Shown here one piece after another: positions 8,134 through 64,000 of a stretch of 64,000 bases of DNA. Location of the stretch: the sequence record SRR31156797_2215. The stretch is one strand, 5' to 3'. The translations under genes were made by a program, and so were the position numbers. The notes below the pieces were generated by a model. The model made no database searches, was not told the DNA's origin, and saw only the letters and a list, made by a program, of their open reading frames with translations. Each line of letters starts with the position of its first letter. Positions within the stretch are counted from its first letter, which is position 1.

Positions 8134-8149
8134 TTTCCTCCCCCTTTTT

Positions 8150-10766: not shown

Positions 10767-10772
10767 AACAGT

Positions 10773-10818: not shown

Positions 10819-10824
10819 GATTGA

Positions 10825-41156: not shown

Positions 41157-41162
41157 TCTCCT

Positions 41163-42164
41163 TTATACAGCCAAAAACCGACTTTCCGCTTGAACAGCAC
41201 GGTCTGGCAGCAGTCCCTTAACGATTCGTTCAATATCCGTTACACATTTGTTTCCCATCTCTTCTAAGCATTCCATAGTATAAGCTGATGTATGCGGTGT
41301 CATAACTATATTTTCAAAAGCTAAATACGGATGATCTTTATGACCAGGCTCTTCCTCTAAGACATCGGTGGCAAGACCAGCGATTTTCCCACTTTTTAAT
41401 CCGCTTACAATTGCCTCTTCATTCAAAAGTGCGCCACGGGCACTATTGGAGAGATACACTTGATCTTTCATTTTTGAAATTTCTTCAAAGGAAATCATAT
41501 GATAATTTTCCTCCGTCAAGTTAGCACATAGACAAATAATATCTGATTTTGCTAGCAGCTCGTCTAGCTCGACTTTTTTTCCGCCATAGCTTTGAATATG
41601 CAAAGCGGACTTATATGGATCGTATGCCAAAATCTCGCAGCGGAAACCATTTCTCAATATTTCTACTACACAACTTCCAGTATTGCCGACACCAATCACG
41701 CCTACTGTCTTGTTAAATAGTGCGCGTCCGACAAAGTTCGCTCGTTTTTCCCATTGATCTTCGCGGACTTTTGTATTCGATTCAACTGTACAGCGCAGAA
41801 GCGCCAATAGATTGGTCACATTATTTTCTGCTACTGCATCACGCTCGACCAAAGCTGGAATGATCGAAACAATCGTTTGGTGGTCCTTCGCTGCTTCTAA
41901 ATCAATATTGTTATAGCCGATCCCGTGGCGTGTGATCAGTAGCAATTCATCTTTGTACTCAAAAAATTCTTTGGTAAAAAATGGGGTAACACTTGCTATA
42001 ATGATGTTGTATCCCTTAAGCTTTTCTGCCAATTCTTTCCCGTTGATTTCGCTATCGAACGTGAAAGGACTGACAGTTCCGATTGCTTTCAACCGCTCGA
42101 TATGTTGCGGAAAGATTTTTCCAAAGCTGCTGGAATTCACTATAGCGATCTTAAACTGTTCCAT
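41163..42164 (-). CDS. D-isomer-specific 2-hydroxyacid dehydrogenase
   Basis: RHGIGYNNID, GVIGVGNTG, NSARG, DVLEEEP, TPH. Confidence 0.92.
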   Translation of the reverse strand: MEQFKIAIVNSSSFGKIFPQHIERLKAIGTVSPFTFDSEINGKELAEKLKGYNIIIASVTPFFTKEFFEYKDELLLITRHGIGYNNIDLEAAKDHQTIVSIIPALVERDAVAENNVTNLLALLRCTVESNTKVREDQWEKRANFVGRALFNKTVGVIGVGNTGSCVVEILRNGFRCEILAYDPYKSALHIQSYGGKKVELDELLAKSDIICLCANLTEENYHMISFEEISKMKDQVYLSNSARGALLNEEAIVSGLKSGKIAGLATDVLEEEPGHKDHPYLAFENIVMTPHTSAYTMECLEEMGNKCVTDIERIVKGLLPDRAVQAESRFLAV

Positions 42165-42175
42165 ATTCTTCCTCC

Positions 42176-43075
42176 TTACTCTTTTGCAACAATCTCATGA
42201 CCACCAAAACCATTCCTTAGCGCAGAGACGACTTTTGCTGAGAAACTGTCTTCTTCTTGGGACAAATTTCTCATAAACAAACTCATAGCGATCGTCGGTA
42301 CAGCAACATTCATCTCCAAAGCCGTTTCCACTGTCCACCTAGCTTCACCAGAAGCTGCAACAACCCCGCGATATTCCTCCAACTTAGGGCTCTCATTAAA
42401 TTGGGCCGCTGCGATTTCCATCAGCCAGCTGCGAATAACCGATCCATGATTCCATACCTCCGCGACGGAAGCCAAATCAAAGTTATAGGCACTTTGTTCA
42501 ATCAATTGAAAGCCTTCACCGATCGCTTGCATCATTCCATATTCGATACCGTTATGGACCATCTTTAGAAAATGACCGCTTCCTGATTCCCCTGCGTAAA
42601 GGTAGCCTCCTAAAACAGCCACATCTGCAAACAAAGATTCCACCTCTAAAAAAGCGATCTCATTCCCGCCAATCATCAAACATGCATCTTTTCTAGCTCC
42701 GGAAACCCCACCAGAAGTCCCACAATCAAAGTAATGCACCTCTTTTTCTTTAAACCAGGCTGCTCGGCGAATCGAATCTTTGTAATTAGAATTTCCGCCT
42801 TCAATCACGATATCTTTCGCTGATACAAGGGTCCATAGTTCTTCAAGAACCCCCTCAGTCACCGTTCCCGCAGGAAGCATCAACCATAAAATCCGTCGGC
42901 CGCTAAAGGAATTCGTCAAATCAGCTAGCGTTTGATAGAGTGTGATTCCAGCTTCTTGCGCTGTTTTCTGCGCATGTACCGAAAGATCCAGCCCTTTTAC
43001 TTGATAACCTTGATCTTTTAAATTGAGGGCTAAGTTCAATCCCATTTTTCCAAGTCCGATAATTCCTACCTCCAT
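42176..43075 (-). CDS. gnd: 6-phosphogluconate dehydrogenase (decarboxylating), short form
   Basis: GLGKMG, DCGTSGG, GHFLKMVHNGIEYG, ALRNGFGGH. Confidence 0.94.
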   Translation of the reverse strand: MEVGIIGLGKMGLNLALNLKDQGYQVKGLDLSVHAQKTAQEAGITLYQTLADLTNSFSGRRILWLMLPAGTVTEGVLEELWTLVSAKDIVIEGGNSNYKDSIRRAAWFKEKEVHYFDCGTSGGVSGARKDACLMIGGNEIAFLEVESLFADVAVLGGYLYAGESGSGHFLKMVHNGIEYGMMQAIGEGFQLIEQSAYNFDLASVAEVWNHGSVIRSWLMEIAAAQFNESPKLEEYRGVVAASGEARWTVETALEMNVAVPTIAMSLFMRNLSQEEDSFSAKVVSALRNGFGGHEIVAKE

Positions 43076-43100
43076 GATAGCGCCTCCATTTCATACTTCC

Positions 43101-43128
43101 ATTATACAAAAAAATATTTTTTTGTAAA
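43101..43128 (-). promoter_or_regulatory. gnd-operon promoter region containing the 22-bp palindrome TACAAAAAAATATTTTTTTGTA (candidate RpiR operator)
   Basis: TATAAT at 43101-43106 (minus); the palindrome at 43105-43126 fills the spacer. Confidence 0.6.
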
Positions 43129-43227
43129 CAATAAAAATAAAAATAATTTTTATTTGCTTTTTTTCTTTAAAAGAGGTAACGTAACAATACAAAGATGATA
43201 ATGTTCATATAAAGGAGGTAACCGTCT

Positions 43228-44079
43228 TTGACTGTTTCGATTCGACTGCAAATAAAAACGCTTTATAAAGACTTAAGTCTCAAAGAACAAGCGATTGCCG
43301 ACTACATTTTGGAAAATCCTAGTAAAGTCAGCCACAGTTCAATCAGTGATTTATCCAATGAATTAGGCATCGCTGATTCGACCTTTTTTCAATTCACAAA
43401 AAAACTCGGTTACAACGGATTTAAAGACTTCAAAATGGCAATGCTGATGCAGGAAAATGATTTTTCTGCCATTTCGATCCATGAAAATATCCAGAAGTCT
43501 GATAATGAATTGACTATGGCTCAAAAAGTATTTGATTCCAATATGACCACACTGACTGATACCAAAAATCTTTTAAAAGAAGAAGATTTAAAGATTGCTG
43601 CTGCAATGATCAATAAATCTAAACGACTTTTTTTCTTCGGCGTTGGTGGTTCAGAAATCGTGGCAACCGATGCCTATCACAAATTTTTGCGCTCGCCGAT
43701 CACTGTTTTCCACAGCAGTGATTATCACATCCAACTGATGGAGGCTTCATTGTTGACGCCAGATGATTGCGGCATTTTTATCTCTCATACTGGAAAATCA
43801 AGAGAAACCATTGAACTAGCTCAAGTTGCCAAAAACAATGGTGCCAAAATTATCGTCATTACTAGCCATGCTGCTTCTCCTTTAGCCAAACTCGGCGACG
43901 TGGTTTTCATCTCTATTTCCGAAGAAACTGAGTTTCGCTCAGAGGCATTGGCATCCAGAATCGCTCAACTGAGCATCATGGATTCCCTCTATGTCATCTT
44001 AATGTTTATTAATCGAGACAAAGCACAACAATCGATTGCCAAAATTCGGCGCTCCATTTCAAAAATCAAAGAACCCTGA
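43228..44079 (+). CDS. MurR/RpiR family regulator
   Basis: IADYIL, KKLGYNGFKDFK, SIS domain FFGVGGS, ISHTG; TTG start after AAGGAGG. Confidence 0.93.
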   Translation: MTVSIRLQIKTLYKDLSLKEQAIADYILENPSKVSHSSISDLSNELGIADSTFFQFTKKLGYNGFKDFKMAMLMQENDFSAISIHENIQKSDNELTMAQKVFDSNMTTLTDTKNLLKEEDLKIAAAMINKSKRLFFFGVGGSEIVATDAYHKFLRSPITVFHSSDYHIQLMEASLLTPDDCGIFISHTGKSRETIELAQVAKNNGAKIIVITSHAASPLAKLGDVVFISISEETEFRSEALASRIAQLSIMDSLYVILMFINRDKAQQSIAKIRRSISKIKEP

Positions 44080-51042: not shown

Positions 51043-51816
51043 ATGGTTTATTGGCATTATTTTTGTATTCATCTCAAAAGTCAGATGCAGTATAAGGTTT
51101 CCTTTGTGTTAACTGCTTTGGGACAATTTCTAGGTTCCTTTACTGCTTTTTTAGGCATTTGGTTTATGTTTACCCGGTTTCATCAAGTGGATGCCTTCAC
51201 CTTTGAAGAAGTCTTGCTTTCCTTTGCGACGGTTTTGTTTGCCTTTTCGATTGCGGAATGCTTCTTTCGCGGGTTCGATCTTTTTCCACAAATGATCAGT
51301 AATGGCGAGTTCGATCGGGCACTCGTGCGCCCTCGCTCCTTGATTTTTCAAGTCTTAGCTTCCAAAATGGAGTTCTCGCGTCTCGGTCGTTTTATTCAAG
51401 CCTTGCTGTTGTTTGCTTATGCGATTCCCAATAGTGGAATTGCTTGGCATTTTGGAAATGTCCTGACTCTTTTTCTAATGATCGTCTGCGGCGCCCTCTT
51501 TTTCGCCCTATTGTTCTTAGTGTATGCCGCCATTTCCTTCTTTACGATCCAAGGACTTGAATTTATGAATATTTTTACCGATGGTGCCCGAGAATTTGGT
51601 CGCTACCCATTTAGTATCTACGGAAAACATGTCTTGCGTTTGTTGACCTACGTCGTGCCGATGGCTTGGTTTCAGTATTATCCGTTTTTGTATGTCATTG
51701 GTCGCGTAACTAATCCTTGGTGGATCTTATCACCGTTGGTTTGTCTGCTCTTTGCCTTTCCCGCCTTCTTCTTTTGGCGAGTAGGTTTGAAGAATTATAT
51801 TTCTACGGGTTCGTAG
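51043..51816 (+). CDS. ABC-2 family permease (DUF990-like)
   Basis: MQYK, GEFDRALVRP, RYPFSIY, ends YISTGS; ATG 51043. Confidence 0.88.
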   Translation: MVYWHYFCIHLKSQMQYKVSFVLTALGQFLGSFTAFLGIWFMFTRFHQVDAFTFEEVLLSFATVLFAFSIAECFFRGFDLFPQMISNGEFDRALVRPRSLIFQVLASKMEFSRLGRFIQALLLFAYAIPNSGIAWHFGNVLTLFLMIVCGALFFALLFLVYAAISFFTIQGLEFMNIFTDGAREFGRYPFSIYGKHVLRLLTYVVPMAWFQYYPFLYVIGRVTNPWWILSPLVCLLFAFPAFFFWRVGLKNYISTGS

Positions 51817-52038
51817 AACAAGCAAGAAGCCCTTATAGACATCAATCATTGAAGACGCATCCTCTAATGATTGGTGCTCTTTTTCTTTTCGATAATTGTA
51901 AAATTGCTCAGTCGCTTTTTATTTGAGCAATCACGTCACTGATATACTGTAAATATTTATCCCCTTAAAGACAAAAACTGGCTAGGAAAAGCAAGCAATC
52001 TCTGGTAAGATAAATAAAAACGTAAAAGAGGACCAGTT

Positions 52039-52206
52039 ATGGAATATTTAGCGATTTTACTTGTTTTCTTTCTATTGAATGTAGTGATACTTGTACTTGG
52101 ATTGAAGAAGAAACGAATCATGCTGCTTTTTCTGTCACTCTCTGGTTTATTGTTGGTTTGCTTGATTGCCATTTCTTACGTTTTCTTCTATTCAAATACA
52201 CTTTAA
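52039..52206 (+). CDS. 55-aa two-TM small membrane protein
   Basis: AAGAGGA RBS; MEYLAILLVFFLLNVVILVLGLKKKRIMLLFLSLSGLLLVCLIAISYVFFYSNTL; absent from the ORF track. Confidence 0.7.
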   Translation: MEYLAILLVFFLLNVVILVLGLKKKRIMLLFLSLSGLLLVCLIAISYVFFYSNTL

Positions 52207-52554
52207 GTTGTCAAAAACACGGGGAGCTGGCTACGAACCTACCGAAACAAACGAGGCTGTTTTAGTCATTACACCCGATTTAGAAGCTATTGGACACACA
52301 ATTTGTGTCCACCTTCAAACAAATCGCTGTTCTTTTGCTCTTTATCAAGTCTAGCGAAAGCAACATATGCACCTTTGATGTCGGTGATATCGTCCCCATC
52401 TTCGCAGCAACCTTTGTGGATGCCGTGCGTTCGCCGATCACTCTTCCAAGTCCGAGGTAGAACGATGTACCACTTATGTTTTTTTGCAAAGTAGATAGAC
52501 AGTGGCTACAGGCGACCAATCAGTCGTAACCGACAAGTTTGTTAAAATCACACG

Positions 52555-52594
52555 AAAAAACCAGAACCTCCGAAAGGATCGTTCTGGTTTTTTC
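52555..52594. terminator. Bidirectional terminator
   Basis: AAAAAACCAGAAC...GTTCTGGTTTTTT. Confidence 0.8.
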
Positions 52595-52736
52595 GCTGAT
52601 TTGATTATCTAGAGAAACGACCTAAATCACTCTGATTCTAGCCAAATTTCTGAAAGAGAATTATAGAAGGATTCTCCTAGCTGATCCGTCATCGGCGCTG
52701 TTTTCTCAATTTAACAATAAAGCGAAAAAGCGGATT

Positions 52737-55652
52737 CTACGCTTTTTTCGGTCCTTTCGTCACTTCCCAAACAGCTTCTGCTGCTAATTTCCCAGAAGTC
52801 AATGCCCAGGCATTATTGGCACCAGATGGAGAGTCTGATCCCATGACGCCTCCCACAACTTCACCTGCAGCATAGAGCCCTTTAATGGGCTGGTTTTGCT
52901 GATTCAAAACTTGCAACGAACGATTGACCGCTAACCCACCAAGCGTAGTCGCAAACCGAGGCTTTTGTTCGATAAGATAATAGGGACCTGCACCAATCGG
53001 TTCTTGCAAGTATTCAGGTGCACGGTGAAACTCTTCGTCGCTTCCTTGCGCTACCCAGTAGTTAAAATTATCCACTGTTTCGATCAGTTGTTCTACAGGC
53101 ATCTGCGCTTTGATGGCTAACTGTTCTAACGTGGCAGCTTTAAGAATACGAGGTGTGGCCTTTCCTTCTTGCGCAATCCAACAAGCCAGCTCTTCACTGG
53201 TGATTCCGCCTTCTGCTACACCTTGGCTGAAATGCTCAAAGTGTTTGCCGTCTAGCAATAAATAAAGCATTGGCGAGCGTTGTCTTAATAATGCTTCTAA
53301 TACTAGCTTATTGCTAGCTCGCTCATTTACTACCCGCTTTCCAAATTGATTCACTAGAATACCGTTTTCTTTCAACACGATCAGATTGCCACCAATCGTT
53401 GATTTCGCCACCCCTTGAGAAATTTCCAATCCATTGGGATAGATTTTTCCTTGATCCATCGTTCGCGTTTGTGCCTTTAAAGCAGGAATGGTTGCCATCA
53501 ACAGACCATCGCCGGTGGCAGATTTTGGTCCATAATACAAAATTTGCTTGAATCTTTCCTTGAGTAAAGAGGCATTATTCCCATAGCCACCGGTTGTCAT
53601 AATGACTGTTGAGGCATAGATCATATGAGTTTTCCCTGATTCTTCGACGGCTTTGACGCCTATGACATTATTTTGATCATCTACTAGTAGCTGTTGGGCT
53701 TTCGTTTGGAGCAAGACCTGAACCCCACTATTCTGTAGTGTTTTACGGACGGTCTGGGCAAATCCAGCGCCGCCCCCTTGATAAGCAAGTTCGCGATTTT
53801 TTTGATATTCTGGTAGGACGTGCAGCCCTTGCTCCAAATCGTAGGCTACACCTAAGTATTCATGGACCCAATCTGTGGTTTCTCCTACGTTCTCAGCGAA
53901 AAGGGTCAAAAGGTTTCGATCGTTCAGCCCATTCCCGTTTTCCAGAAAATCAGCCACCATTGCTGTCGGTGTATCATCTTTTACACCAGCAATCTGTTGT
54001 AGTTTCGAACCAGTCACGATTTGGTTTCCACCACTAATAGAGATCGCTCCACCCACAAAACTTAATTTTTCCAGTAAGATGACCTTTCGTTCTAACTGAT
54101 CCGCTCGCAATGCAGCAGCAAGCCCAGCAGCGCCTGAGCCAATGATCACTACATCAACTGCTTCTTCAACCACTTCTTCTGACCAAGCCACGACTGGCTT
54201 TGGCCGTGCTTTGAGGACCTCTACATCGGCGCCTGCAAGTTTTACCGCTTCTTCCACCCCTGCGATCACCCCTTGACTGGAAGCAGAAGCACCAGAAACA
54301 GCATCGACATTCAGCGTTTGTCCTTCAATGATCTGTGCCGGAATTCTCGTAAAGACTAAATCAGATAAACCTTCAGATTCATTGCCTTTATCAATCGTAA
54401 TCTTTTCAATCGTTTCCTTTGAAAAAGTCACTTGCATTTCAATCGGACTATTGTGTCCTTGGGCTTGTACAAGATATGTCCCTGGTTGGTAAGCGACTTT
54501 CCGCTTTTGGAGTTCTTTCAAGCGTTCATGCTTTTGTTTCTCCTCTTCTGGATCAATGACCATATCTTCCATAAACTGCCACAATGGTGTTGGGATTTTC
54601 AACTCACTTTGCGCATGACTAAGAGCAAAATGACGAACAACTTTCTTCTCGGCGATCATCTGAACCCAATTAGGTTCGACTAAAAATCCTTTCCCGATGG
54701 CAAGCAAATCGTAGCCAATTTTCAGTGCTGCTTCTGCGTCTTCTCGTTGCAAGATAGAGCCCACTCCTATAATCGGAATAGTCGAAAGTTCAGGCGAACG
54801 CATTGTTAAAAACTTCACAATCAATGGCTCGCTGCTCTCGTTATCAATAATAGAACTTCGATGATAGGTTCCCATTGAAAAATGAAGGTACTCTGGCTTG
54901 CTTTTCGCTAGTTGATTCAACAAGTACATCGTTTCTTCAAAACAAATCCCAGGCTTTTCCATTTCTTCTGGCGAAAAACGATAACCGATAACAAAGTCTT
55001 CAACCGATTCTTCTTGACGGATCCGCTGTACTTCTTTTAATACGGCTAATGGAAAGTGCGCTCTTTTTTCCAGACTGCCTCCCCAATAGTCGTTTCTGCG
55101 ATTTGAGTGAGGCGAGAAAAATTGTTGGATCAAAAAGGTATTCGCACCATGTATCTCCACGCCATCGTAACCAGCTTTGATGGCACGCCTAGTCGCGTCT
55201 CCAAATCGTTGAATCATCGTTAGGGTCTCATCATTACTCATTTCTTTCGGAACAGGTGCGTTTGGTCGTAACGCTGCGACGGGACTTGCGCAAATCGGTT
55301 GTACTCCACCATTGTACTCAGGCCATGCCATTCGTCCAGCATGATAAATTTGCAGGATCGCTTTTGAGCCTTTTTCTTTGATGGCTTTTGCTAATCTAGT
55401 GAGCCCAGCAATTTTCTTGTCTGTATCTACCCCGAGTGCTCCCGGAAACCCACGCCCATGTTCTTCGATAAAGCAGCTTTCTACGATCACTGCCGCAGCT
55501 GCACCGGCACGACAGCGATAGTATTCAATGATCTCTTCTGTTACTTCACCATCATAAAAAGCAGATTGAGTTGTCATAGGTGCCATAACGAGTCGATTTT
55601 TAAGTTCAACACCAGAAGATAGTTTGCTTGGTTCAAATAATTCTTTTTTCAT
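52737..55652 (-). CDS. Cytoplasmic NADH-dependent flavin reductase: OYE + FMN_bind + FAD (flavocytochrome c-type) fusion
   Basis: NRLVMAPMT and EIHGAN (OYE); DAVSGAS (flavinylation motif); GSGAAG, TGGYG, GLYAAGEV (FAD domain); no signal peptide. Confidence 0.88.
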   Translation of the reverse strand: MKKELFEPSKLSSGVELKNRLVMAPMTTQSAFYDGEVTEEIIEYYRCRAGAAAAVIVESCFIEEHGRGFPGALGVDTDKKIAGLTRLAKAIKEKGSKAILQIYHAGRMAWPEYNGGVQPICASPVAALRPNAPVPKEMSNDETLTMIQRFGDATRRAIKAGYDGVEIHGANTFLIQQFFSPHSNRRNDYWGGSLEKRAHFPLAVLKEVQRIRQEESVEDFVIGYRFSPEEMEKPGICFEETMYLLNQLAKSKPEYLHFSMGTYHRSSIIDNESSEPLIVKFLTMRSPELSTIPIIGVGSILQREDAEAALKIGYDLLAIGKGFLVEPNWVQMIAEKKVVRHFALSHAQSELKIPTPLWQFMEDMVIDPEEEKQKHERLKELQKRKVAYQPGTYLVQAQGHNSPIEMQVTFSKETIEKITIDKGNESEGLSDLVFTRIPAQIIEGQTLNVDAVSGASASSQGVIAGVEEAVKLAGADVEVLKARPKPVVAWSEEVVEEAVDVVIIGSGAAGLAAALRADQLERKVILLEKLSFVGGAISISGGNQIVTGSKLQQIAGVKDDTPTAMVADFLENGNGLNDRNLLTLFAENVGETTDWVHEYLGVAYDLEQGLHVLPEYQKNRELAYQGGGAGFAQTVRKTLQNSGVQVLLQTKAQQLLVDDQNNVIGVKAVEESGKTHMIYASTVIMTTGGYGNNASLLKERFKQILYYGPKSATGDGLLMATIPALKAQTRTMDQGKIYPNGLEISQGVAKSTIGGNLIVLKENGILVNQFGKRVVNERASNKLVLEALLRQRSPMLYLLLDGKHFEHFSQGVAEGGITSEELACWIAQEGKATPRILKAATLEQLAIKAQMPVEQLIETVDNFNYWVAQGSDEEFHRAPEYLQEPIGAGPYYLIEQKPRFATTLGGLAVNRSLQVLNQQNQPIKGLYAAGEVVGGVMGSDSPSGANNAWALTSGKLAAEAVWEVTKGPKKA

Positions 55653-55790
55653 AAAAATCAGTTCCTTTCAAATAGCTTGCTTCGTCAGACCGCATGTATT
55701 AAGGCATCACGAAATACACCCATCTTTTTCGAACAAGTCGAAAAGATGAGTGTCTCCCCTATTCAGTTATTACTTACTTCATTTCCCCAT

Positions 55791-56633
55791 TTATTTTTGG
55801 TTTTCCGGCCGAGAATTGATGGCATACTGTTTACGCCCACCAGGTTTTGGTACTTGATCCCCCATCATGATCCCAAAACCGCCTTCAACACGTAATTCGT
55901 GCCCGTTCGTATAATCGGAACGTTCGCTGGCTAAGTAAAGGACTGCATTAGCAATGTCTTGCACATCGCCGATTCGCTTATTGGCAGTTAAACGTTTCCG
56001 CCCCTCTTCAACTTCTGGGTCTGCATAAAAGCTTGCGGATAAAGGTGTCTTCACAAAGCATGGCAAGACACAATTGCTGCGAAGGCCGTACTGCCCCCAC
56101 TCTGCAGCCATTTGTTTCGACATCATATTAACTCCAGCCTTACTTGGGCTATACGCACCAGAATATGTTTCAGGGCTGATTGAGGCGATCGTTGAGACAT
56201 GCACCATCCGCCCTGATTTTTGTGCGATCATCACTCGCCCGATTCTTTGAGAAACCAAGAAGTAGCCGTTTAAGTTGACGTCGATCACTTGTTTCCATTC
56301 TTCAAATGGTAGATCTTCAAGCAATGAAAATTTCAAAATAGCCGCTGTGTTTACCAAAACATCAATGCGGCCAAAATCTTCTTTGACCTTTTCTGCCAAT
56401 GCATCTACCTGCGCTTCGATCGTCGAATTGCAAACATAGCTGTTTACTTTCACACCAAATTGATCTGCTAGCTGTACTGCATAGTTGGCAAGGTTTTCCT
56501 CATGTAAATCAACTAATGCAAGTTGTGCGCCTTGATCAGCAAAGTCCTGTGCAATTTTTTTCCCCATACCGCCTAAAGCGCCGGTAATGACTACGACCTC
56601 ATTCTTAAGATTCAACCAAGATTGCTCCATCAT
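55791..56633 (-). CDS. SDR family oxidoreductase
   Basis: TGALGGMG, IDVLVN, YSPSK, NGHEL.VEGG. Confidence 0.92.
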   Translation of the reverse strand: MMEQSWLNLKNEVVVITGALGGMGKKIAQDFADQGAQLALVDLHEENLANYAVQLADQFGVKVNSYVCNSTIEAQVDALAEKVKEDFGRIDVLVNTAAILKFSLLEDLPFEEWKQVIDVNLNGYFLVSQRIGRVMIAQKSGRMVHVSTIASISPETYSGAYSPSKAGVNMMSKQMAAEWGQYGLRSNCVLPCFVKTPLSASFYADPEVEEGRKRLTANKRIGDVQDIANAVLYLASERSDYTNGHELRVEGGFGIMMGDQVPKPGGRKQYAINSRPENQK

Positions 56634-56647
56634 TTATACCACCTCTA

Positions 56648-56675
56648 ATATTGTTATATTCTTCACTAACAATAT
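56648..56675. promoter_or_regulatory. Inverted repeat ATATTGTTA-N10-TAACAATAT containing a Rex-like box (56651-56668)
   Basis: TTGTTA-N6-TCACTA versus Rex consensus TTGTGA-N6-TCACAA; immediately upstream of the SDR RBS. Confidence 0.55.
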
Positions 56676-56717
56676 ACCTTGATATGAGCAGAGAAACTAA
56701 TTCTTTTTTTCCATTGA

Positions 56718-57386
56718 TCAATAGCTTCTGTGAATGGTTTGTTCCTTTAACGCAGTCGTAACGAGCGCTTGAGCGAGCTCAGGATTTTTACAATAGATTA
56801 TGCAGCTAGCAAGCAATGTAGGGGAATTTTCCAGCTGATAAAACGTCTGTACAAAAGATGCAGCAGCGATCTCACTCAAGGAATAGAGACGTGCCTGTTT
56901 TTTCAAAAAACCTATCTGATAGTGCAGTTGTCTTTGAATGGTCCAGAGATTTTTACGATATTCCAATACATGAAACACTTCATGCATGAAAACCAATTCC
57001 GTAAGTGTCGTCGCAGGAAGTAATCGGCTTAATTGCTGTGCTTCGATAAAATGCTGCGCTTGCGCCAAGAAATTGCGATCAATCATAATATGATCTGTTT
57101 TTTTATAGACAGCAAAGGTATAGCGCTCCTGTTGCGCTTGCGCTTCAGGCAGTTCATTGATCTTTAATGAATCAATGATTCCTTGCAATTCTTGAGGATG
57201 CTCTCGATACCAGCGGGCTTCTTGCTTACCTATGCTTTCAGCAGTTTCAATAAAGGACTCTGCCTGCGCAGGATCAACTTTGGCGTGAAGGGGGTCTTGT
57301 TTGAACAGCTGCAGGTGAGGATTGGTTGCTCGAGACCATAGGTGTAAAAATTGTTGGCAAAATTCTTCTACTTTCACGGATCTCAT
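56718..57386 (-). CDS. Hypothetical protein with HExxH zinc motif
   Basis: FMHEVFHVLE plus downstream SEIAA; AAGGAAGG RBS. Confidence 0.7.
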   Translation of the reverse strand: MRSVKVEEFCQQFLHLWSRATNPHLQLFKQDPLHAKVDPAQAESFIETAESIGKQEARWYREHPQELQGIIDSLKINELPEAQAQQERYTFAVYKKTDHIMIDRNFLAQAQHFIEAQQLSRLLPATTLTELVFMHEVFHVLEYRKNLWTIQRQLHYQIGFLKKQARLYSLSEIAAASFVQTFYQLENSPTLLASCIIYCKNPELAQALVTTALKEQTIHRSY

Positions 57387-57398
57387 TCCTTCCTTGGC

Positions 57399-59519
57399 CT
57401 ACTGCAAGCGGTTCGCAGCAATAATAATAATCTCTTCTGTACCAATCAACTGACTTAATTCAATATCGATCAACATCATCAATTGGGTATAATCTGTCGA
57501 ACTAAAATCAAAGAGACGCGGTCCAGCACAAATATAAAAATCTGGCCGGATGACTAGATCACTTTGGTAGTTCGCCATACTTTCCCAAAGACGAGCGATT
57601 TGTTCACTATAACTTTGGATCGTCGTTTTCACGACATCTGCATGGTCTCTTTGCACGCGAATAAAGCCTCGATGATCAATGACACAAACACGATCGCCTT
57701 TTTTTGTCGCTGCGCCATAAATATAAAAATGTTCACTCGTAGCACAAGAAACCACGTTTTCTTTAGCAACTTGCAGCTCAGCATAGGCAATGTCTTGCGC
57801 TTCTTCACGGTTAATTTGGTTTTGACGCTCAGCGGCTTGAGCAGCTGTGGCACCGGAGGCTCGCGCAGTAATTTTTTGCGTCTGAGGATCGATTTCAATA
57901 TAGACTTCAATACTATCAGGCGTTGCCCCACTCTCGATCGCCAAAGTAGCTGCTTCTTGCTTGATTGCTGCAATATCCGCTTTTGTTGGATTCGGGACAA
58001 TTCGTTCCACCACGTCTTGAACGACGGATAACGCCACACCGATCGATGAAATCACTTCAGCATTTTCAGGTATTTTATAATTCAACGACAATTGTTTCGC
58101 TGCATGTTTGATCAGTGAAGAGACGCCTCCTCCTACACCTACTAAAGTCATTTGGTTAGGCTCTAATTGATACTTGCGGGCAAAAGATTGAATCACAGGT
58201 GCTATTTTTTGGACTGCTTGATCCAATATTTGCTGTGCGACATCCTCCACCGTCGTTTCTAAGTACTTCGCTAAAGGCTGCATGGCTTTTCTGGCCGAAT
58301 GGGCATTGCCATAGGAAAAATCATCCTTTGTGACATATCCTAAGACATTCGCTGCACAAGAATTCGTGATCGTAATTCGTTTCCCGTTAGCAAGTTTGAT
58401 TGCAACATAATCTGCTGGGTCACCTTCTTTTGGCGCATAAAGCTCCAGTTCTGGTGCAACGATCTCTTCTTCTGGCAGATACGTACTATATTCTAACCCA
58501 GCGATATGGGCACTTCTTGGGCCGACGTCTATCACGCCTTTTTTGTTCACTCGAACCATACTGCCGCCAGCCACACCTAGGACGCGAACATCTAATGAAT
58601 TGACATACGTCTTATGGCCTGCAATCTCTGAGTAATCGATGACTGGCCGACCATTTTTGATAACGCCAAGATTCGTCGAAGTTCCCCCTACTTCAAAATA
58701 AATACCGTTCGACGTTCGCAGATACATCAATGCTCCCATCACGCTGGCTGCTGGACCAGAAAGCATCGTTAGCACCGGTCGTTTTTTCATTTCAACAATG
58801 TCCATCAACCCGCCATCGCCCCGCATGATCATCAGTGGTACATCCACACCTGCTTGGCGAACACTATTTTCTGTTGAATTTGCCGTTTCCAGCATCGTTG
58901 GCAAAATCGATGCATTGATTGCTGCGGTACGGGTTCTCCGGGATAACCCATATAGTTTGGTCATCTCCGACGCCAAGGTTACCTCGATGCCCTTTCGTTT
59001 GGCTACTTCAGCGATTCTTTCTTCTGTTTGTAAATCATCTACACCAAAAGCTGCTGAAGTCACGATGACCTGAGCTTGTGCCTGTTGTAGTTCTGCTAAT
59101 GCCGCTTCGATTGTTGCTTCTGAAAGCTCTTTTTTAGGAATAAAGCGAGCAACGACTTCAATACTTCTTCCCGTACCTAAATCAATGTCTTTTAATGCCG
59201 TTTGCCACTTTGCCAGCCAACCTTCGACGCCGCCCTTTGCTGTACTGATAATGCCGACCTTCGCTACATCTCCTTCTAAGAGTGCATTGGTGGCTTGGGT
59301 TGTGCTGTGAGCGACAAAGACCACTTCATCTGGCTGGATCTGATTTTCGGCTAAACACTTAATAAAAGAGGCCACTACACCTTCTGCAACCCCTTGCTCA
59401 CTTTTGTGGGTCGTTTTTACAGATGACTTTCCAATCACCTCTTGCGTGTCATTGTTGATTGCGACAGCTTTTGTATGGGTTCCACCCACATCAATGCCAA
59501 TTCGGACACTTCTTCTCAT
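57399..59519 (-). CDS. Hydantoinase/oxoprolinase A-type (actin-like ATPase) protein
   Basis: RIGIDVGGTHT, HSTT.ATNALL, TAAINAS, SGPAAS, EVGGTST, AGGS, VGPRSA. Confidence 0.88.
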   Translation of the reverse strand: MRRSVRIGIDVGGTHTKAVAINNDTQEVIGKSSVKTTHKSEQGVAEGVVASFIKCLAENQIQPDEVVFVAHSTTQATNALLEGDVAKVGIISTAKGGVEGWLAKWQTALKDIDLGTGRSIEVVARFIPKKELSEATIEAALAELQQAQAQVIVTSAAFGVDDLQTEERIAEVAKRKGIEVTLASEMTKLYGLSRRTRTAAINASILPTMLETANSTENSVRQAGVDVPLMIMRGDGGLMDIVEMKKRPVLTMLSGPAASVMGALMYLRTSNGIYFEVGGTSTNLGVIKNGRPVIDYSEIAGHKTYVNSLDVRVLGVAGGSMVRVNKKGVIDVGPRSAHIAGLEYSTYLPEEEIVAPELELYAPKEGDPADYVAIKLANGKRITITNSCAANVLGYVTKDDFSYGNAHSARKAMQPLAKYLETTVEDVAQQILDQAVQKIAPVIQSFARKYQLEPNQMTLVGVGGGVSSLIKHAAKQLSLNYKIPENAEVISSIGVALSVVQDVVERIVPNPTKADIAAIKQEAATLAIESGATPDSIEVYIEIDPQTQKITARASGATAAQAAERQNQINREEAQDIAYAELQVAKENVVSCATSEHFYIYGAATKKGDRVCVIDHRGFIRVQRDHADVVKTTIQSYSEQIARLWESMANYQSDLVIRPDFYICAGPRLFDFSSTDYTQLMMLIDIELSQLIGTEEIIIIAANRLQ

Positions 59520-59536
59520 TTTTTTCACCTACTTTT

Positions 59537-60865
59537 TTAAATCGGGCTATATAACAGGAACGTCGCAATTTCAAGAACCAGCGAAATGACGACTCCTGGT
59601 AAAAAAGCAACCTTCATGTAATCTTTCGTATTGATATTATTGAAGCCTAATCCCCAAGCATTCCAAGAAATGGTCAAATCAAAATGACCCATACCGATCA
59701 TATTAGAAATGAACAACGGATATAAAAACGTCACAGGATAATTGGTTTGATTGCTGATTACTGCTAATAACGCTGCCCCACAACCAATCAAAGAAAGTGG
59801 CCCGCGAAACCAGGTCAAGGGAGCTAAAAAACCAAAAAGCAAACAAAGCGCTAAGGGATGCGTCGGAATGATTCCTCCTAGCAATGATTCAAAATAAGGT
59901 GCAGCGAAGGTTGCAGCTGCATTGAACATCGCAAGGGTCATCCAAAAGGCAACTAAGGTCGCAGTATCTTTGACCCCATCTGCAAAAATACGTGTCAAAA
60001 TCTGAGAATCTTTTCTAAACCCATCCTTTAAAACACCACAAATCCACAAGGCATAAAGACTCGCACCAATAAAACAAAAGATCACTGGAAATTGAAAGAT
60101 GATGACTCCTACGACCGGTATAAAAGGGGTAAGTAACGCCAAACTAGGAACGTCTTGAACTTTCGGTTCTTCTCCAACCGCCCAAGCATAGGTCAAACTT
60201 TCTACTCTCAAATACCCAATAGCAAAAATCGAAGAAACCAGAATCATCACAAAGAAAGCCAATAATCCAAACGAAAAATAATCATTATAGGTGTAATCAA
60301 CCCCACCATTCACATTGCCAAAAAAGGCTTGATACTGTGTGAAATTGATTGGATTTAAGAAAACACCTGCTGCAACGGAAGCCGAAAAACTAAAGAATGC
60401 CACGACTTTAGGAATACCAATCGAAAATAAAATTGGCAATACGATCACGGCGATCGCGATGACAGATCCGGCACCTGACATGGATGAAAAGATAAAGCCG
60501 GTAATCAAATTGACAATTACTAGAATAATCGCTGGGCTATCCCCACCTAGTTCCACACTCTTACGAATGATAGTTGCCGCAATGCCCGTTTCCAACAAGA
60601 TCCTACCAAAGAATGCTCCTACAAAAATATTCATTTGTGAAGCCCCCCAGCGTTCTGGCGCCTGTTGATAGACCTGTGCCAGCATCTCGGTAAAAGGGAG
60701 GTTTTCAAATGCCGGATTGGGTGAAATGACATTCCCTATAAGCGGCAACAACACCCATAATGTTGCCATAACGATAAAACCAATCATCAGGTTATATCCT
60801 TTGATACAATAAAAAACCATGCCACCAAATGACACTACTAGTAATAAGCCAATCAAGCTATCCAT
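59537..60865 (-). CDS. Polytopic secondary transporter (IT superfamily, GntP/CitM-like)
   Basis: About 12 hydrophobic segments; GAFFGRILLETGIA..IIRKSVELGGD. Confidence 0.75.
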   Translation of the reverse strand: MDSLIGLLLVVSFGGMVFYCIKGYNLMIGFIVMATLWVLLPLIGNVISPNPAFENLPFTEMLAQVYQQAPERWGASQMNIFVGAFFGRILLETGIAATIIRKSVELGGDSPAIILVIVNLITGFIFSSMSGAGSVIAIAVIVLPILFSIGIPKVVAFFSFSASVAAGVFLNPINFTQYQAFFGNVNGGVDYTYNDYFSFGLLAFFVMILVSSIFAIGYLRVESLTYAWAVGEEPKVQDVPSLALLTPFIPVVGVIIFQFPVIFCFIGASLYALWICGVLKDGFRKDSQILTRIFADGVKDTATLVAFWMTLAMFNAAATFAAPYFESLLGGIIPTHPLALCLLFGFLAPLTWFRGPLSLIGCGAALLAVISNQTNYPVTFLYPLFISNMIGMGHFDLTISWNAWGLGFNNINTKDYMKVAFLPGVVISLVLEIATFLLYSPI

Positions 60866-60940
60866 TCTTCTTCTCCTCCATACAAATTACGCCGTTTGAA
60901 CCTGCAGCCAGATACGCGAAAGCCGCCGTTTAACAAAAGC

Positions 60941-60973
60941 GAAAAAGGAGGAAGTGGTTGGCCACTATCCTCC
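60941..60973 (-). terminator. Intrinsic terminator after the MFS gene
   Basis: GGAGGATAGTGG-CCAA-CCACTTCCTCC-TTTTT. Confidence 0.65.
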
Positions 60974-60980
60974 AGGACGT

Positions 60981-62264
60981 TTAGTCCTTTAATTTATCAA
61001 ATGCGCTGTAGCCAAATACTCTTTTGTGTTGCAGTAACAAATAAACCATCATGACGATCGCTAAAACCGCAGCTGCGAGTAATAAGCCCATCATAATAAA
61101 AATCGCTTGCGTTTCTCCTACTGACCGAGTCATGGAAGCAACGATGTAAGGTAAAAAGGTACTTGCTAAGCCCATCCAAGTATAGTAGATCCCGGTATTT
61201 CGACCTTTTGGTCCAGGGCAAAACATTTGTCGTACCCCTAGCCCAGTTTGCAACGCCCCTCCGGCAGCAAAGAAACCCAAGAAGGCGATACTGATATAAA
61301 TCACTACGACATGTTGGATCACTAATACCATCCCTAACGCAAGAGCGATGAATACCGTATCAATAAATAAGACTTTTAAGGGATTCCAACGCAATTTCCC
61401 CATCATTACTGCCCAAAACAAAACAGCCACCATTGAGCCAAAAGTATAGATCGATGTTAGCCCCGCTGACTGCATCTCAGTCAAACCAGCATTCGTCAAA
61501 CCAAACGCTTTGGTATACTGTTGGGCGCCGTACATGATGAACATACAGATAAAACCAAAGAACATTGTGAAGAAGTTAACGATTATATTCGGCTTAACAA
61601 GCATTTTGGCCTTCATCGCCGCAATTTCTTCTTGAACCGCATTCGTTTCTTTTCCATCAACGGTTGCCGCTTTTTCTTTCATCATGTCATCATAGGCGAA
61701 TGGCGCGATAGCTGCTAAAATCGTGCAGACGATCGATAGGACTAATGGAATAATAATCCCCATCGACTGATTCCCAGACCCGATGAAATTTACCACAAGT
61801 AAGGGATAGATAACCCCTGACAAAGAAACAAAAAACTTGATCCCAATCATTGCTGAAGCCGCATATTTCGGTGCTGCTTCTTGAGAAGCGGGATACAATG
61901 CAGCATCCCAGAAACCAGAAGTCGCCACCCCTGCGATAAAGGCACAGACAGACGCGATCACCATATTCGTCGTCAGTAACAGACCTAAAAAGCATAGCGT
62001 ATACAAAACAGCCCCCATGACCGCCATTTTTTTGCGTCCCACTTTATCCGAAATTTCTCCACCAATCCAGACGGTCAAGAATTTCCCTAATCCGGTCGCA
62101 GTGATGGCCAACGATACCGCAGCGGCTCCTGCAGAAGCATCGGTATAGCCCCATTTATCCGAAAAATAAGTCGCATTTTGGCTTAAAATAATAGCTTGGA
62201 TCCCATGAGTGAAATAACACATATAGACAGTTGCCAGTGACAAAATATACTTTTTTGCTCTCAT
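60981..62264 (-). CDS. MFS transporter (YdiM/YdiN-like; quinate/shikimate candidate)
   Basis: Y..YFTHG, GLGK, GEISDKVGRK motif A, about 12 TM; next to shikimate dehydrogenase. Confidence 0.82.
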   Translation of the reverse strand: MRAKKYILSLATVYMCYFTHGIQAIILSQNATYFSDKWGYTDASAGAAAVSLAITATGLGKFLTVWIGGEISDKVGRKKMAVMGAVLYTLCFLGLLLTTNMVIASVCAFIAGVATSGFWDAALYPASQEAAPKYAASAMIGIKFFVSLSGVIYPLLVVNFIGSGNQSMGIIIPLVLSIVCTILAAIAPFAYDDMMKEKAATVDGKETNAVQEEIAAMKAKMLVKPNIIVNFFTMFFGFICMFIMYGAQQYTKAFGLTNAGLTEMQSAGLTSIYTFGSMVAVLFWAVMMGKLRWNPLKVLFIDTVFIALALGMVLVIQHVVVIYISIAFLGFFAAGGALQTGLGVRQMFCPGPKGRNTGIYYTWMGLASTFLPYIVASMTRSVGETQAIFIMMGLLLAAAVLAIVMMVYLLLQHKRVFGYSAFDKLKD

Positions 62265-62292
62265 TTGTACGCTCCTTATAAAAGAACATCCA

Positions 62293-62334
62293 GCTTTCCT
62301 ACGAAAATTTCCCTGATGGTATTTCGTAGGAAAG
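62293..62334. other. Intergenic stem-loop between the dehydrogenase and MFS genes
   Basis: CTTTCCTACGAAA...TTTCGTAGGAAAG; no T-tract on the coding strand. Confidence 0.6.
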
Positions 62335-62351
62335 GGATACTCGGTCCCTAG

Positions 62352-63200
62352 TTAGTTTGCTCTGACAGGCAGTTCCTTGCCAGTAAACAGTTTAAAGGCG
62401 GCTTTTCCTTGTCCCACCAGCATTCCTTTTCCACCCACGGTCTTACAACCTTTTGCGCTGGCATCTTTCAATAACTGGGTCATTGGTGGGTTATAGATCG
62501 CATCAGCCACCGTCAAATCTGCATGCAGTACCTCTGTGTCTGCAATCGGTGTCGCTGTATTTCCTTCACCCATTCCAACAGTCGTTGCATTCACTAAACA
62601 ATCGGCTCCTTTTATTTTTTCAGCAAGTAACGCTTGATCCGTCAGATCATAAATATCAATTACTAGATCAGGGTAATATTCTTTAATGCGAGCAACGGTC
62701 TCTTTGCCTTTTTCATAAAACGCATCTTTGATGTTGAATATCGCAATGGAGGCTGCGCCTTCGATCGCCAATTGGACTTGGATCGCGGTGGCAGCTCCAC
62801 CAGCTCCGATCACAACAAATTTTTGATCTTTCATTTTTACATCGTGTGCTTGCAGATTATCAACAAAGCCGACACCATCGGTAATATGGCCGACGAGCTT
62901 GCCTTCATCATTGACGATGGTATTGATCGCACCAACCATTTTTGCAGCCGGCGTCAATTCATCCATGTATTCTGCCGCTGCCGTTTTGCAAGGCATCGTG
63001 ACATTTCCACTCATTTTGAAGGTTCGAAATGCCTCGATCGCCTGGGCGACTTGGTCTTCTTTAATGTCAAAAGCTAAATAAACTGCATCGATATCAAGCT
63101 GGTCAAAGCCATAATTATACATGGCTGGCGAACCAGAATGCCCAACAGGTGTACCGATCAATCCTAAGAGCTTCGTTTTTCCCGAAATTTTTTCGCTCAT
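62352..63200 (-). CDS. Shikimate/quinate dehydrogenase (AroE/YdiB family)
   Basis: GTPVGHSGSP, NVTMPCK, GAINT, TDGVG, GAGGAA, NATTVGM, IYNP. Confidence 0.93.
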   Translation of the reverse strand: MSEKISGKTKLLGLIGTPVGHSGSPAMYNYGFDQLDIDAVYLAFDIKEDQVAQAIEAFRTFKMSGNVTMPCKTAAAEYMDELTPAAKMVGAINTIVNDEGKLVGHITDGVGFVDNLQAHDVKMKDQKFVVIGAGGAATAIQVQLAIEGAASIAIFNIKDAFYEKGKETVARIKEYYPDLVIDIYDLTDQALLAEKIKGADCLVNATTVGMGEGNTATPIADTEVLHADLTVADAIYNPPMTQLLKDASAKGCKTVGGKGMLVGQGKAAFKLFTGKELPVRAN

Positions 63201-63227
63201 CGTATTTCCTCTTTTCTATTTGATTTT

Positions 63228-64000
63228 TTACGCAAGCAATTCTGGCCATGCGTTTTGGATCACTTCAATACTGGTTTTGTAATTTTGCTCTGCTGCTTTT
63301 TGATAGCCTTGACTTAAAATCGGATCAGAAATCACTTCCGTGCCTACAACACGAGGCTTGATGCCGTGAGCTTTTAGTGCCCGTAAGAAGCCTTCGGTAT
63401 CACCCCATCCTGTTCCTGGACATAAGCGATCGTGCATCGACTCATCACGTAAGATCGTATCAGGATAACGTCTTTCTAAAACATCACAAATTTGGATCGA
63501 AACAACTTTCTCCGCTGGAACCCCTTCCAAGTCAGCTGCTGTCATGTTGGCTCTCGCCCAGTGCCAAGTATCTAGGATCAGCATCCCATTTTCACAATCT
63601 GCCTCTTTGACAATATTCCATGCACTAGCTAGATCAGGAACACCGCTATAAGGCATGAATTCTAACCCAATGACTAATTCTTTTGCTCGTGTACATAGTT
63701 CTTTAAAGGCTTGGATATGAACCTCTGCTGGGTATTTTTCCATCAAGCCACAATTGATGTGCCCAACACCAAACAAACGTGCCATATGATAGATCGTTTG
63801 CTCTTTAAATTGTTGCAGCAGTGTTTCCGGTGTTTCCATCGTTTTATTTGGATCAGCCCACAAGGTGATATATTCGACCTCGGTTACTTTCATGTCATGT
63901 TCTGCAAGAATTTCAAGCATCCGCTCATCCGAATAGCCTTGCTTCACAGCAAGCATATAGGTCTCCGCACGTAAACCGATCCCGTCGTATCCTGCCTCTT
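63228..64000 (-). CDS. Sugar-phosphate isomerase/epimerase-fold protein; probable 3-dehydroshikimate dehydratase (Listeria Lmo2234/QuiC2-like); start lies outside the window
   Basis: Frame open to the window edge (EAGYDGIGLRAETY...); KVTEVEYIT, LEFMPYSG, DTWHWAR, IQICD, HDRL.PG match recalled Lmo2234 motifs. Confidence 0.82.
   Translation of the reverse strand, partial: EAGYDGIGLRAETYMLAVKQGYSDERMLEILAEHDMKVTEVEYITLWADPNKTMETPETLLQQFKEQTIYHMARLFGVGHINCGLMEKYPAEVHIQAFKELCTRAKELVIGLEFMPYSGVPDLASAWNIVKEADCENGMLILDTWHWARANMTAADLEGVPAEKVVSIQICDVLERRYPDTILRDESMHDRLCPGTGWGDTEGFLRALKAHGIKPRVVGTEVISDPILSQGYQKAAEQNYKTSIEVIQNAWPELLA

Follow-up and report, generated by a model that had tools for sequence, protein, structure and literature searches.

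Lactic acid bacteria (LAB) reportedly reduce quinate to dihydroshikimate, an observation attributed to Carr et al. in 1957, and Whiting and Coggins are said to have followed the route of Lactobacillus plantarum in the 1970s as far as 3,4-dihydroxycyclohexanecarboxylate, its end product. The closest described gene clusters are the qui1 and qui2 operons of Listeria monocytogenes (QuiR, Lmo0488; QuiR2, Lmo2233; QuiC2), which a preprint credits with protocatechuate formation and whose flavoprotein gene it calls uncharacterized. The closest described enzymes are FRD of Klebsiella pneumoniae and ARD of Vibrio harveyi, in which, according to Bertsova and co-workers, an OYE-like domain oxidizes NADH, a covalent FMN relays the electrons, and a FAD_binding_2 domain reduces the substrate. 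Here, a stretch of 64,000 nucleotides from sequence record SRR31156797_2215 (the window) was analyzed, in which eight genes, g1 to g8, lie on the minus strand within positions 52737-64000, separated by gaps of 8-138 nt. This co-oriented arrangement, proposed in a preliminary description of the stretch, was borne out by the open reading frame (ORF) listing together with Pfam and NCBIfam searches. With moderate confidence, we read the locus as an operon under a QuiR-type LysR regulator that would use the shikimate/quinate ring as a cytoplasmic NADH sink, with g8 as the hydroaromatic C=C reductase. This would be the same physiology as quinate reduction by LAB, in which hydroaromatic acids serve as hydrogen acceptors and for which biochemistry was described without gene assignments.

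The comparison covered gene content, domain architecture, active-site pattern, synteny, and clade structure, all of which were observed directly. The nearest genome, G001, shares 99% identity with the stretch across the 12 kb compared and was used to read past the window end; named relatives of g8 are those of E. innesii (95%) and E. casseliflavus (94%), which places the stretch in the Enterococcus casseliflavus group. Like the Listeria qui operons, the locus has a divergent LysR gene whose product is closest to QuiR, a Lmo2234-like first gene, and, within the operon, a YdiB-class dehydrogenase, a major facilitator superfamily (MFS) transporter, and a flavin oxidoreductase. The pairing of QuiC2, shikimate dehydrogenase (SDH), and MFS with a flavin oxidoreductase that the preliminary description gives for Listeria was likewise seen in a Listeria-like genome, the oxidoreductase being of the OYE + Pyr_redox_2 type. 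The Listeria-type locus differs in that it encodes a 644-amino-acid (aa) OYE + Pyr_redox_2 protein and no ortholog of the short-chain dehydrogenase/reductase (SDR), whereas the window operon has a three-domain FAD_binding_2 reductase plus the SDR and a three-gene cassette.

The reductase gene, g8 (52737-55652, minus strand, 971 aa), encodes, in Pfam order, Oxidored_FMN (residues 4-336), FMN_bind (residues 399-471), and FAD_binding_2 (residues 500-940). The OYE-like domain, presumed to be the NADH-oxidizing module, is at 54645-55643 (PF00724 at 2.7e-74), the FMN_bind domain at 54240-54458 (PF04205, with the Ser456 codon at 54285-54287), and the FAD_binding_2 domain, which has a non-canonical active site, at 52833-54155 (PF00890 at 2.2e-55), all on the minus strand. 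No signal peptide was found in g8, whose sequence opens directly at the OYE domain. Domain order, flavinylation motif, lack of a signal peptide, and the need for ApbE are features shared with Klebsiella FRD and Vibrio ARD; the active site of g8, however, is of another type, with K750, R899, and D940 of its own, and its context is hydroaromatic, whereas FRD and ARD are stand-alone.

The flavinylation motif of g8, D450-A-V-S-G-A-S456 (DAVSGAS), is invariant in 18 orthologs and has the same form as DVISGAT in V. harveyi ARD. Three ApbE genes are present in G001, one encoding a lipoprotein and two encoding proteins without a signal peptide, and one of the latter two products shares 49% identity with the ApbE whose gene immediately precedes that of the Enterococcus pallens g8 ortholog. 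In architecture, and in the combination of a flavinylation motif with a cytoplasmic ApbE (read in G001), g8 is therefore of the FRD/ARD type. Within the OYE domain, HGANTF aligns to the H-G-A-N/H-G-Y motif of Sye4 and a Thermus OYE, with Phe173 in place of Tyr. The tyrosine of this motif is the proton donor in ene-reducing OYEs, and its replacement by Phe173 fits a purely NADH-oxidizing role for the OYE domain of g8. By analogy with FRD and ARD, we infer that electrons would travel from NADH, by way of the FMN in the OYE-like domain, to an FMN held covalently on Ser456 of FMN_bind, where a cytoplasmic ApbE would attach it.

An unfused counterpart of this part of g8 was also encountered. Locus L112 (G188:C3:122000-141999, positions 9007-12077) carries a separate gene for a 504-aa OYE + FMN_bind protein, 57% identical to g8 residues 1-490, followed by genes for two proteins of 129 and 366 aa, the larger of which has an FMN_bind-like stretch; the predicted NADH-oxidizing module occurs unfused too, in this one family of the order.

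To place the active site, g8 was aligned to the solved structures of Fcc3 and urocanate reductase. In Fcc3 numbering, His365 is replaced by Y738, Arg381 by G754, Arg402 by N781, His504-His505 by A901-T902, and Arg544 by S941. Arg402, His504, and Arg544 (motif I) are highly conserved in fumarate, methacrylate, and urocanate reductases, and ARD keeps Arg402; all three are absent in g8 (N781, A901, S941). These residues bear on the explanation in which g8 serves as a general NADH:fumarate (or acrylate, or urocanate) reductase of the cytoplasm and merely happens to neighbor qui genes. Its three-domain architecture is that of Klebsiella FRD and Vibrio ARD, and database names of its relatives include 'fumarate reductase flavoprotein' and 'urocanate reductase', but Arg402, His504, Arg544, and also Arg381 are replaced, the first three in every member of the clade described below, and g8 scores 255.3 against the flavocytochrome c model TIGR01813, below its cut-off of 285.45. 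Since catalytic residues are replaced, g8 does not belong to the known types of fumarate, urocanate, or acrylate reductase, and we consider this explanation scarcely credible; the idea of an ordinary enzyme of that type was abandoned. Identity as a fumarate/acrylate reductase was rejected on the same ground, the replacement of required active-site residues.

A tree was computed from 42 distinct FAD domains, no pair of which is more than 97% alike. ORFs were omitted when BLASTP with g8 residues 481-971 as the query (E <= 1e-15) matched them over no more than 380 query residues; among those omitted were ORFs of L017, L028, L030, L035-L037, L039-L041, L044, L045, L055-L057, L070, L077, L100, L101, L106, and L114. 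The tree splits into a clade of 29 that includes g8 and an outgroup of 13 (SH-aLRT 97), the latter made up of 12 three-domain reductases, from Vibrio, Photobacterium, Pseudaeromonas, Staphylococcus, and Rosenbergiella, and one second FAD protein from a qui-linked locus. To the Vibrio, Photobacterium, and Staphylococcus enzymes, the FAD domain of g8 is only 25-30% identical. Y738, K750, R773, N776, E777, R899, F900, A901, D940, and S941 are common to all 29 clade members and T902 to 28 of them; K750, R899, and D940 are clade specific, and Fcc3 Arg402, His504, and Arg544 are missing from all 29. The same alignment recovered a canonical pattern in 12 of the 12 outgroup three-domain enzymes (Met...Arg...His-His...Arg in Vibrio and Staphylococcus, His...Arg...His-His...Arg in Rosenbergiella), and the replacements are therefore real rather than an artefact of alignment.

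Clade membership goes with genomic context. A gene for SDH and/or type I dehydroquinase was found in the fetched locus of 22 of the 29 clade members and of 0 of the 12 outgroup three-domain enzymes. These 22 qui-linked loci comprise three from Enterococcus (the window, E. innesii, and one Enterococcus metagenome-assembled genome [MAG]), nine from Streptococcus, one from Gemella haemolysans, and two from Aerococcus MAGs, together with those of three genomes of one genus that encode an OYE-less form of 604-631 aa and of four genomes of another family that encode a form of 564-580 aa. The context label changes 4 times on the tree, compared with a mean of 14.2 for shuffled labels, and 0 of 500 shuffles gave a value as low. 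Because kinship inflates this test, what carries weight is that the linkage recurs in several genera in which gene order has been rearranged. The proposed synteny of SDR and reductase with quiC2/ydiB holds far beyond this genome, in several genera.

The loci came from a scan of one genome per species, which yielded 80 loci, 18 of which encode a full-length g8 ortholog with an FAD-domain identity of 54% or more, and further reductase forms came from whole-genome searches across 401 members of the order; G038, G341, and G268 were matched in the order-wide genome search and lie outside the fetched loci. A full-length g8 ortholog was present in 4 of the 401 genomes, all 4 of which also have the SDR (17 of 401) and a QuiC2-like gene (33 of 401). 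Elsewhere, other reductases take its place. The FMN_bind-FAD_binding_2 form (564-580 aa, 33% identity, same motif) occurs in the qui clusters of four genomes, with the layout LysR / QuiC2-like - SDR - MFS - FMN_bind-FAD_binding_2 - SDH - AroD or an order variant of it (L098, L103, L104, and L105). Minimal clusters in three genomes, with the 604-631-aa form (54-55% identity), read reductase / LysR / SDH - MFS - AroD and have neither QuiC2 nor SDR. At the corresponding place in a Listeria-type genome and one other, there is an OYE + Pyr_redox_2 protein of 644-682 aa. Types of ene-reductase are thus swapped within otherwise similar clusters, which argues that C=C reduction belongs to the pathway. 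The preliminary description had offered two fates for an imported ring, aromatization or reduction; judged by comparative genomics, the role that fits g8 best is reduction of a ring C=C bond.

At the other end of the operon, the first gene, g1, extends on the minus strand from 63228 to past 64000. It is truncated at the end of the window, which leaves 256 aa in view; in G001 the protein has 283 aa. Its product is a single-domain, xylose-isomerase-like TIM barrel (PF01261) whose closest solved relative is Listeria Lmo2234 (2G0W; E 1.5e-102 over residues 2-281), and it is 58-60% identical to the copies of 16 Listeria-type genomes. In its single TIM barrel of about 285 aa, its likeness to Lmo2234, and its position as first gene opposite a QuiR-type LysR gene (in G001), g1 agrees with the QuiC2 type, and the layout with a first gene divergent from LysR is found in the Listeria-type locus L106 as well. 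Against the model of two-domain QuiC (NF042435, 635 positions), it scored 27 bits with a cut-off of 1200 and is not a member of that family; we regard g1 as a predicted QuiC2-like dehydratase homolog.

The preliminary description had pointed to the sequence beyond 64 kb as the place to look for a LysR regulator and aroD. In G001, a divergent LysR gene indeed begins a short way beyond the end of the window, 236 nt upstream of g1, and the effector domain of its product matches Listeria QuiR best (Lmo0488, 5TED; E 1.3e-41), followed by BenM (4e-26); aroD is elsewhere, on a different contig.

The second gene, g2 (62352-63200, minus strand, 282 aa), encodes Shikimate_dh_N and SDH_C domains. It passes the AroE/YdiB family test (TIGR00507, 202.8 versus a cut-off of 200.2) and falls slightly below the cut-off of the PRK12548 subfamily model (423.8 versus 432); with solved relatives in Listeria (3TNL, 2.5e-70) and in E. 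coli YdiB (1NPD, 1.8e-68), it is a putative YdiB-class quinate/shikimate dehydrogenase. The product of g3 (60981-62264, minus strand, 427 aa) matches MFS_1 at 1e-24 and, weakly, the aromatic acid/H+ symporter family; MFS genes with 24-33% identity to g3 are present in related qui clusters, and g3 is presumed to be a hydroaromatic acid carrier. Toward the end of the operon, g7 (55791-56633, minus strand, 280 aa) encodes a classical SDR (adh_short_C2 at 1.3e-58). Orthologs with 55-77% identity were found in 16 further genomes of the 401 sampled, and in 14 of the resulting 17 genomes, G001 included, a QuiC2-like gene is on the same contig no more than 8 kb from the g7-type SDR. The SDR gene is also present in 10 of the 11 fetched QuiC2-like loci, and at E <= 1e-60 no g7 ortholog was found in 26 genomes of the Listeria-type genus. 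Judged by this distribution, g7 appears to be a cluster-specific SDR.

Shikimate and 3-dehydroshikimate are cyclohex-1-ene-1-carboxylates (enoates), and the latter is also an enone. In the scheme we propose, in which the substrate of g8, the direction of its reaction, and the roles of g1 and g7 are inferred, g3 and perhaps g4 would import the acid, and g2 would interconvert shikimate and 3-dehydroshikimate as well as quinate and 3-dehydroquinate, quinate being used via the housekeeping dehydroquinase. By saturating C1=C2 in the ring of shikimate or 3-dehydroshikimate, g8 would then give dihydroshikimate or its 3-oxo form. As a less certain extension, g1 might take the C5 hydroxyl off the saturated 3-oxo intermediate, using the chemistry by which QuiC2 forms protocatechuate; dehydration at C5 of such a compound would lead to a 3,4-dioxo or enol intermediate, whose keto groups g7 could reduce to yield 3,4-dihydroxycyclohexanecarboxylate. 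The extended route would use two NADH net per shikimate. That the route continues past ring saturation is suggested by the conserved pair of QuiC2-like and SDR genes. Only tentatively do we go further and suggest that the operon and its relatives in Streptococcus, Gemella, Aerococcus, and lactobacilli encode the complete reductive pathway of LAB, with a new g8-type class of reductase, a non-aromatizing g1, an SDR finish, and a recruited cassette.

Precedents for the ring-reducing step come from other members of the superfamily. According to the preprint by Little et al. (bioRxiv 2022.12.26.521950), the enoate of shikimate is reduced by Eggerthella lenta and Sutterella wadsworthensis, and just one flavin reductase of the superfamily to which g8 belongs is induced by shikimate in the former. 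The preprint also reports that cinnamate reductase clades without both active-site arginines are still active, and a later preprint names 'shikimate reductase' among the characterized superfamily members. Given these precedents for shikimate reduction, g8 was assigned as a candidate cytoplasmic NADH:shikimate or NADH:dehydroshikimate reductase. The E. lenta enzyme resembles g8 in belonging to the PF00890 superfamily and in its proposed reaction, enoate saturation to hydroshikimate (bioRxiv 2022.12.26.521950). However, the reductases surveyed by Little et al. have predicted signal peptides and are fed by an electron transport chain, whereas g8 is cytoplasmic with a fused NADH module; the likeness is at the superfamily level.

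The same genes could instead serve a Listeria-like aromatization, in which g2 and g1 would convert the imported acid to protocatechuate for export while g7 and g8 acted as redox helpers on another substrate, for example in quinone or aldehyde detoxification or in re-oxidizing NADH made by g2. The identity of 58-60% between g1 and the Listeria QuiC2-type protein, which is reported to form protocatechuate, speaks for this, as do the QuiR-like regulator and the location of the nearest Enterococcus g8 orthologs outside qui loci. Aromatization leaves unexplained, however, that three types of ene-reductase recur in qui clusters, that minimal LysR-SDH-MFS-AroD-reductase clusters occur without a QuiC2-like gene, and that the SDR accompanies the QuiC2-like gene in 14 of 17 genomes. 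In addition, no UbiD-family decarboxylase was found in G001 that could use protocatechuate, which would be a dead end there. On balance, we judge aromatization alone to be unlikely.

A further explanation takes g8 for a hydroxycinnamate (caffeate) reductase, so that the locus would treat both halves of chlorogenic acid, quinate by g1 and g2 and caffeate by g8. L. plantarum HcrB and the cinnamate reductases from the gut are members of the same superfamily as g8, and some of them do without the two arginines. One of the 11 fetched loci, a Streptococcus-type cluster of genome G150, also has an alpha/beta-hydrolase esterase gene among its qui genes, but in the minimal clusters the reductase is partnered only by SDH, MFS, and AroD, and against the vinylphenol reductase model g8 scores 181.8 with a cut-off of 600. 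Moreover, G001 has a separate hcrR-hcrA-hcrB-hcrC-like locus (L114, G001:C45:112000-128000, positions 4839-11394) with genes for ApbE, LysR, a 212-aa SsuE-like FMN reductase, an 808-aa FMN_bind-FAD_binding_2 protein that passes TIGR01813 with a score of 341, and a lactate-type MFS transporter. This matches the hcrR-hcrA-hcrB-hcrC hydroxycinnamate reductase layout reported for L. plantarum (PMC10295242). The presence of the HcrAB-like locus makes a caffeate reductase role for g8 less likely, and we consider that role distinctly improbable.

The G150 cluster is of note for its extra genes. In L107 (G150:C34:52000-71999), positions 6437-9816 hold three genes between the reductase/AroD and SDH/MFS/SDR/QuiC2 parts, encoding an Abhydrolase_3/BD-FAE esterase, a protein of 445 aa with no family assignment, and a protein with a metallo-beta-lactamase fold; the esterase could be a chlorogenate esterase.

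Several observations weigh against a hydroaromatic reductase role for g8 in this operon. Among the 29 clade members, seven lack linkage to qui genes, and six of these are the nearest other Enterococcus orthologs of g8, which lie between groEL/ApbE and NAD-salvage genes. Within Enterococcus, g8 therefore appears to have come to stand behind the SDR, as the last gene of the qui operon, by a derived join in the casseliflavus lineage. For G371, the sole one of the six in which the rest of the genome was checked, a qui cluster with QuiC2-like, SDH, MFS, g4-g6-type cassette, and SDR genes is on another contig. The seventh, from G012, is predicted to be a lipoprotein and is encoded in an unrelated gene neighborhood. 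No flavin reductase was found within the 19-20 kb fetched for L099, L101, and L102, 3 of the 11 QuiC2-like loci, and the cluster in the window has no aroD, the sole DHquinase_I match of G001 being on a different contig. The 138-nt gap between g7 and g8 leaves room for g8 to have its own promoter. An aromatizing role for g1 has a direct precedent, as QuiC2 forms protocatechuate from dehydroshikimate according to the Listeria preprint, and the role proposed here for g1 has none; nor can the substrate be read from the active site of g8. Lastly, 18 RNA-labelled runs contain the stretch, but in the 4 examined, contigs of up to 142 kb span operon and flanks alike, as in DNA, and show no transcript ends or joints, which is evidence neither for nor against expression or co-transcription.

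The G012 protein merits a separate remark. It is encoded at positions 9028-10863 of L109 (G012:C1:1049000-1068999) and combines an FAD domain of the g8 clade, 54% identical and with the same active-site residues, with a lipoprotein signal peptide; no qui genes were found nearby. It may represent an extracytosolic version of the g8-type reductase.

Listeria qui operons, three-domain NADH:enoate reductases, and the reduction of shikimate by flavin reductases are known already. In the literature searched, no gene assignment for reductive quinate/shikimate metabolism of Lactobacillales was found, nor any description of the g8 active-site clade or the g4-g6 cassette. The operon offers candidate genes for the long-known reduction of hydroaromatic acids by LAB, and plants, silage, cider, coffee, and the gut are all rich in quinate, shikimate, and chlorogenate. 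Should our reading hold, a cytoplasmic NADH-linked ring reductase would explain redox relief, and hence extra acetate and ATP, in fermenters without a respiratory chain; three-domain NADH:enoate reductases would gain a new substrate class and a new active-site type; and the gene set would serve as a marker from which the turnover of hydroaromatics by food and gut microbiomes could be predicted.

The preliminary description had assigned all eight genes to one pathway. This did not hold for g4, g5, and g6, which encode a permease, an ASKHA ATPase, and an HExxH protein and form an independent cassette, present as a trio in 4 of the 22 qui-linked tree rows (the window, L010, L011, and L097 of G371). 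The permease, g4 (59537-60865, minus strand, 442 aa), is polytopic and has no Pfam match even at E 10; its paralogs in G001 match CitMHS weakly (2.4e-6 and 1.6e-8). The ATPase, g5 (57399-59528, minus strand, 709 aa), has Hydant_A_N and Hydantoinase_A domains (PF05378 and PF01968) that make up an ASKHA ATPase core, followed by a C-terminal region of about 200 aa without family assignment; its solved relatives align only to residues ~130-340. In these domains it resembles HyuA-type hydantoinase, oxoprolinase, and acetone-carboxylase ATPases, from which it differs in that its constant partners are the permease and the small HExxH protein. A Pfam scan of the eight cluster proteins, and of those only, found no Hydantoinase_B-type domain, and among them g5 has A domains without the B partner of a two-component hydantoinase/oxoprolinase. 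The paralogs of g5 in G001 are 59-60% identical to it, and databases hold more than 7,998 relatives at E <= 1e-50; relatives with at least 60% identity occur among enterococci, Lachnospiraceae, and Mollicutes.

The third cassette gene, g6 (56718-57386, minus strand, 222 aa), also has no Pfam match at E 10. It contains HEVFH at residues 135-139, and H135, E136, H139, E142, and S171-E-I-A-A175 are invariant in five copies that are otherwise 18-46% identical; among the g6-type proteins of the three G001 cassettes, identity is 18-22%, with H-E-x-x-H-x-x-E and S-E-I-A-A kept. The structural model of g6 (pLDDT 75) gave the PprI/IrrE metalloprotease as its top fold match in VIA-align (Z 8.2, rmsd 3.1, 106 residues), a Z score that falls where chance arrangements occur and is a lead only, and Foldseek against the PDB returned nothing at E <= 0.001. 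A protein atlas matched g6 to Bacillota clusters only, with M78 listed at a score of 0.80, which is within the chance range. We describe g6 as a small HExxH protein for which a zincin-like fold is predicted as a lead only. Complex prediction for g5 and g6, in two runs without controls, scored 0.00 both times.

Two more cassettes are present in G001 (L094, G001:C109:124000-140000, positions 6451-13145; L095, G001:C56:143000-159000, positions 6215-10535), one flanked on both sides by GH31 glycosidase genes and the other beside a LacI regulator and a PTS/BglG pair. A g5-type ATPase was found in 13 of 351 Bacillota genomes sampled. Among 12 loci from other Bacillota, the gene for a g4-like permease adjoins the ATPase gene in 11, and a small HExxH ORF comes next in 7, with two more loci stopping at a contig edge; the 5-kb stretches fetched for these 12 loci gave no match to the qui query proteins. 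By its distribution, then, the g4-g6 cassette appears to be a separate, portable, and widespread module rather than part of the core of the qui pathway. It may substitute for the second MFS carrier of streptococcal clusters, or it may represent a novel ATP-dependent system, for uptake or for activation, that can be combined with different catabolic loci.

This distribution also bears on a salvage explanation, in which imported shikimate or quinate would feed aromatic amino-acid synthesis with g5 acting as a kinase and g7 and g8 incidental. The ASKHA ATPase core of g5 would suit a kinase, and the genome has one other shikimate dehydrogenase and one dehydroquinase. The cassette, however, also stands between GH31 genes and beside a LacI gene, and it occurs in 12 of 350 other Bacillota genomes, where the 5-kb stretches match no qui query proteins; it is the SDR and the reductases, rather than g5, that accompany qui genes as conserved partners. 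We therefore give salvage very little credence.

Around the operon, a terminator-like hairpin at 52725-52747 (minus strand), with an 8-pair stem and a T-rich tail, overlaps the stop of g8 and is a consensus match only. Below it lies a convergent, unrelated ABC-2 transporter. A promoter scan gave fewer sites than chance (16 versus a shuffle mean of 20.0), and no promoter is claimed. Beyond the LysR gene, G001 has an Mrr-like nuclease gene and then rho and murA; the nuclease gene (L009, positions 2152-2778, 208 aa) is of the Mrr_cat restriction-endonuclease-like type and sits between the LysR gene and rho. DNA 95-99% identical to window positions 51500-64000 is present in 17 ant-metagenome 'metatranscriptome' runs (2025) and one other RNA-labelled run; the ant runs hint at an insect-associated habitat and nothing more. 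Elsewhere in the window, a run of minus-strand genes at 40044-44079 encodes Fe-ADH-like, D-2-hydroxyacid dehydrogenase, and 6-phosphogluconate-dehydrogenase-like proteins, with a divergent RpiR/SIS regulator, and is probably a sugar-acid locus unrelated to the qui operon.

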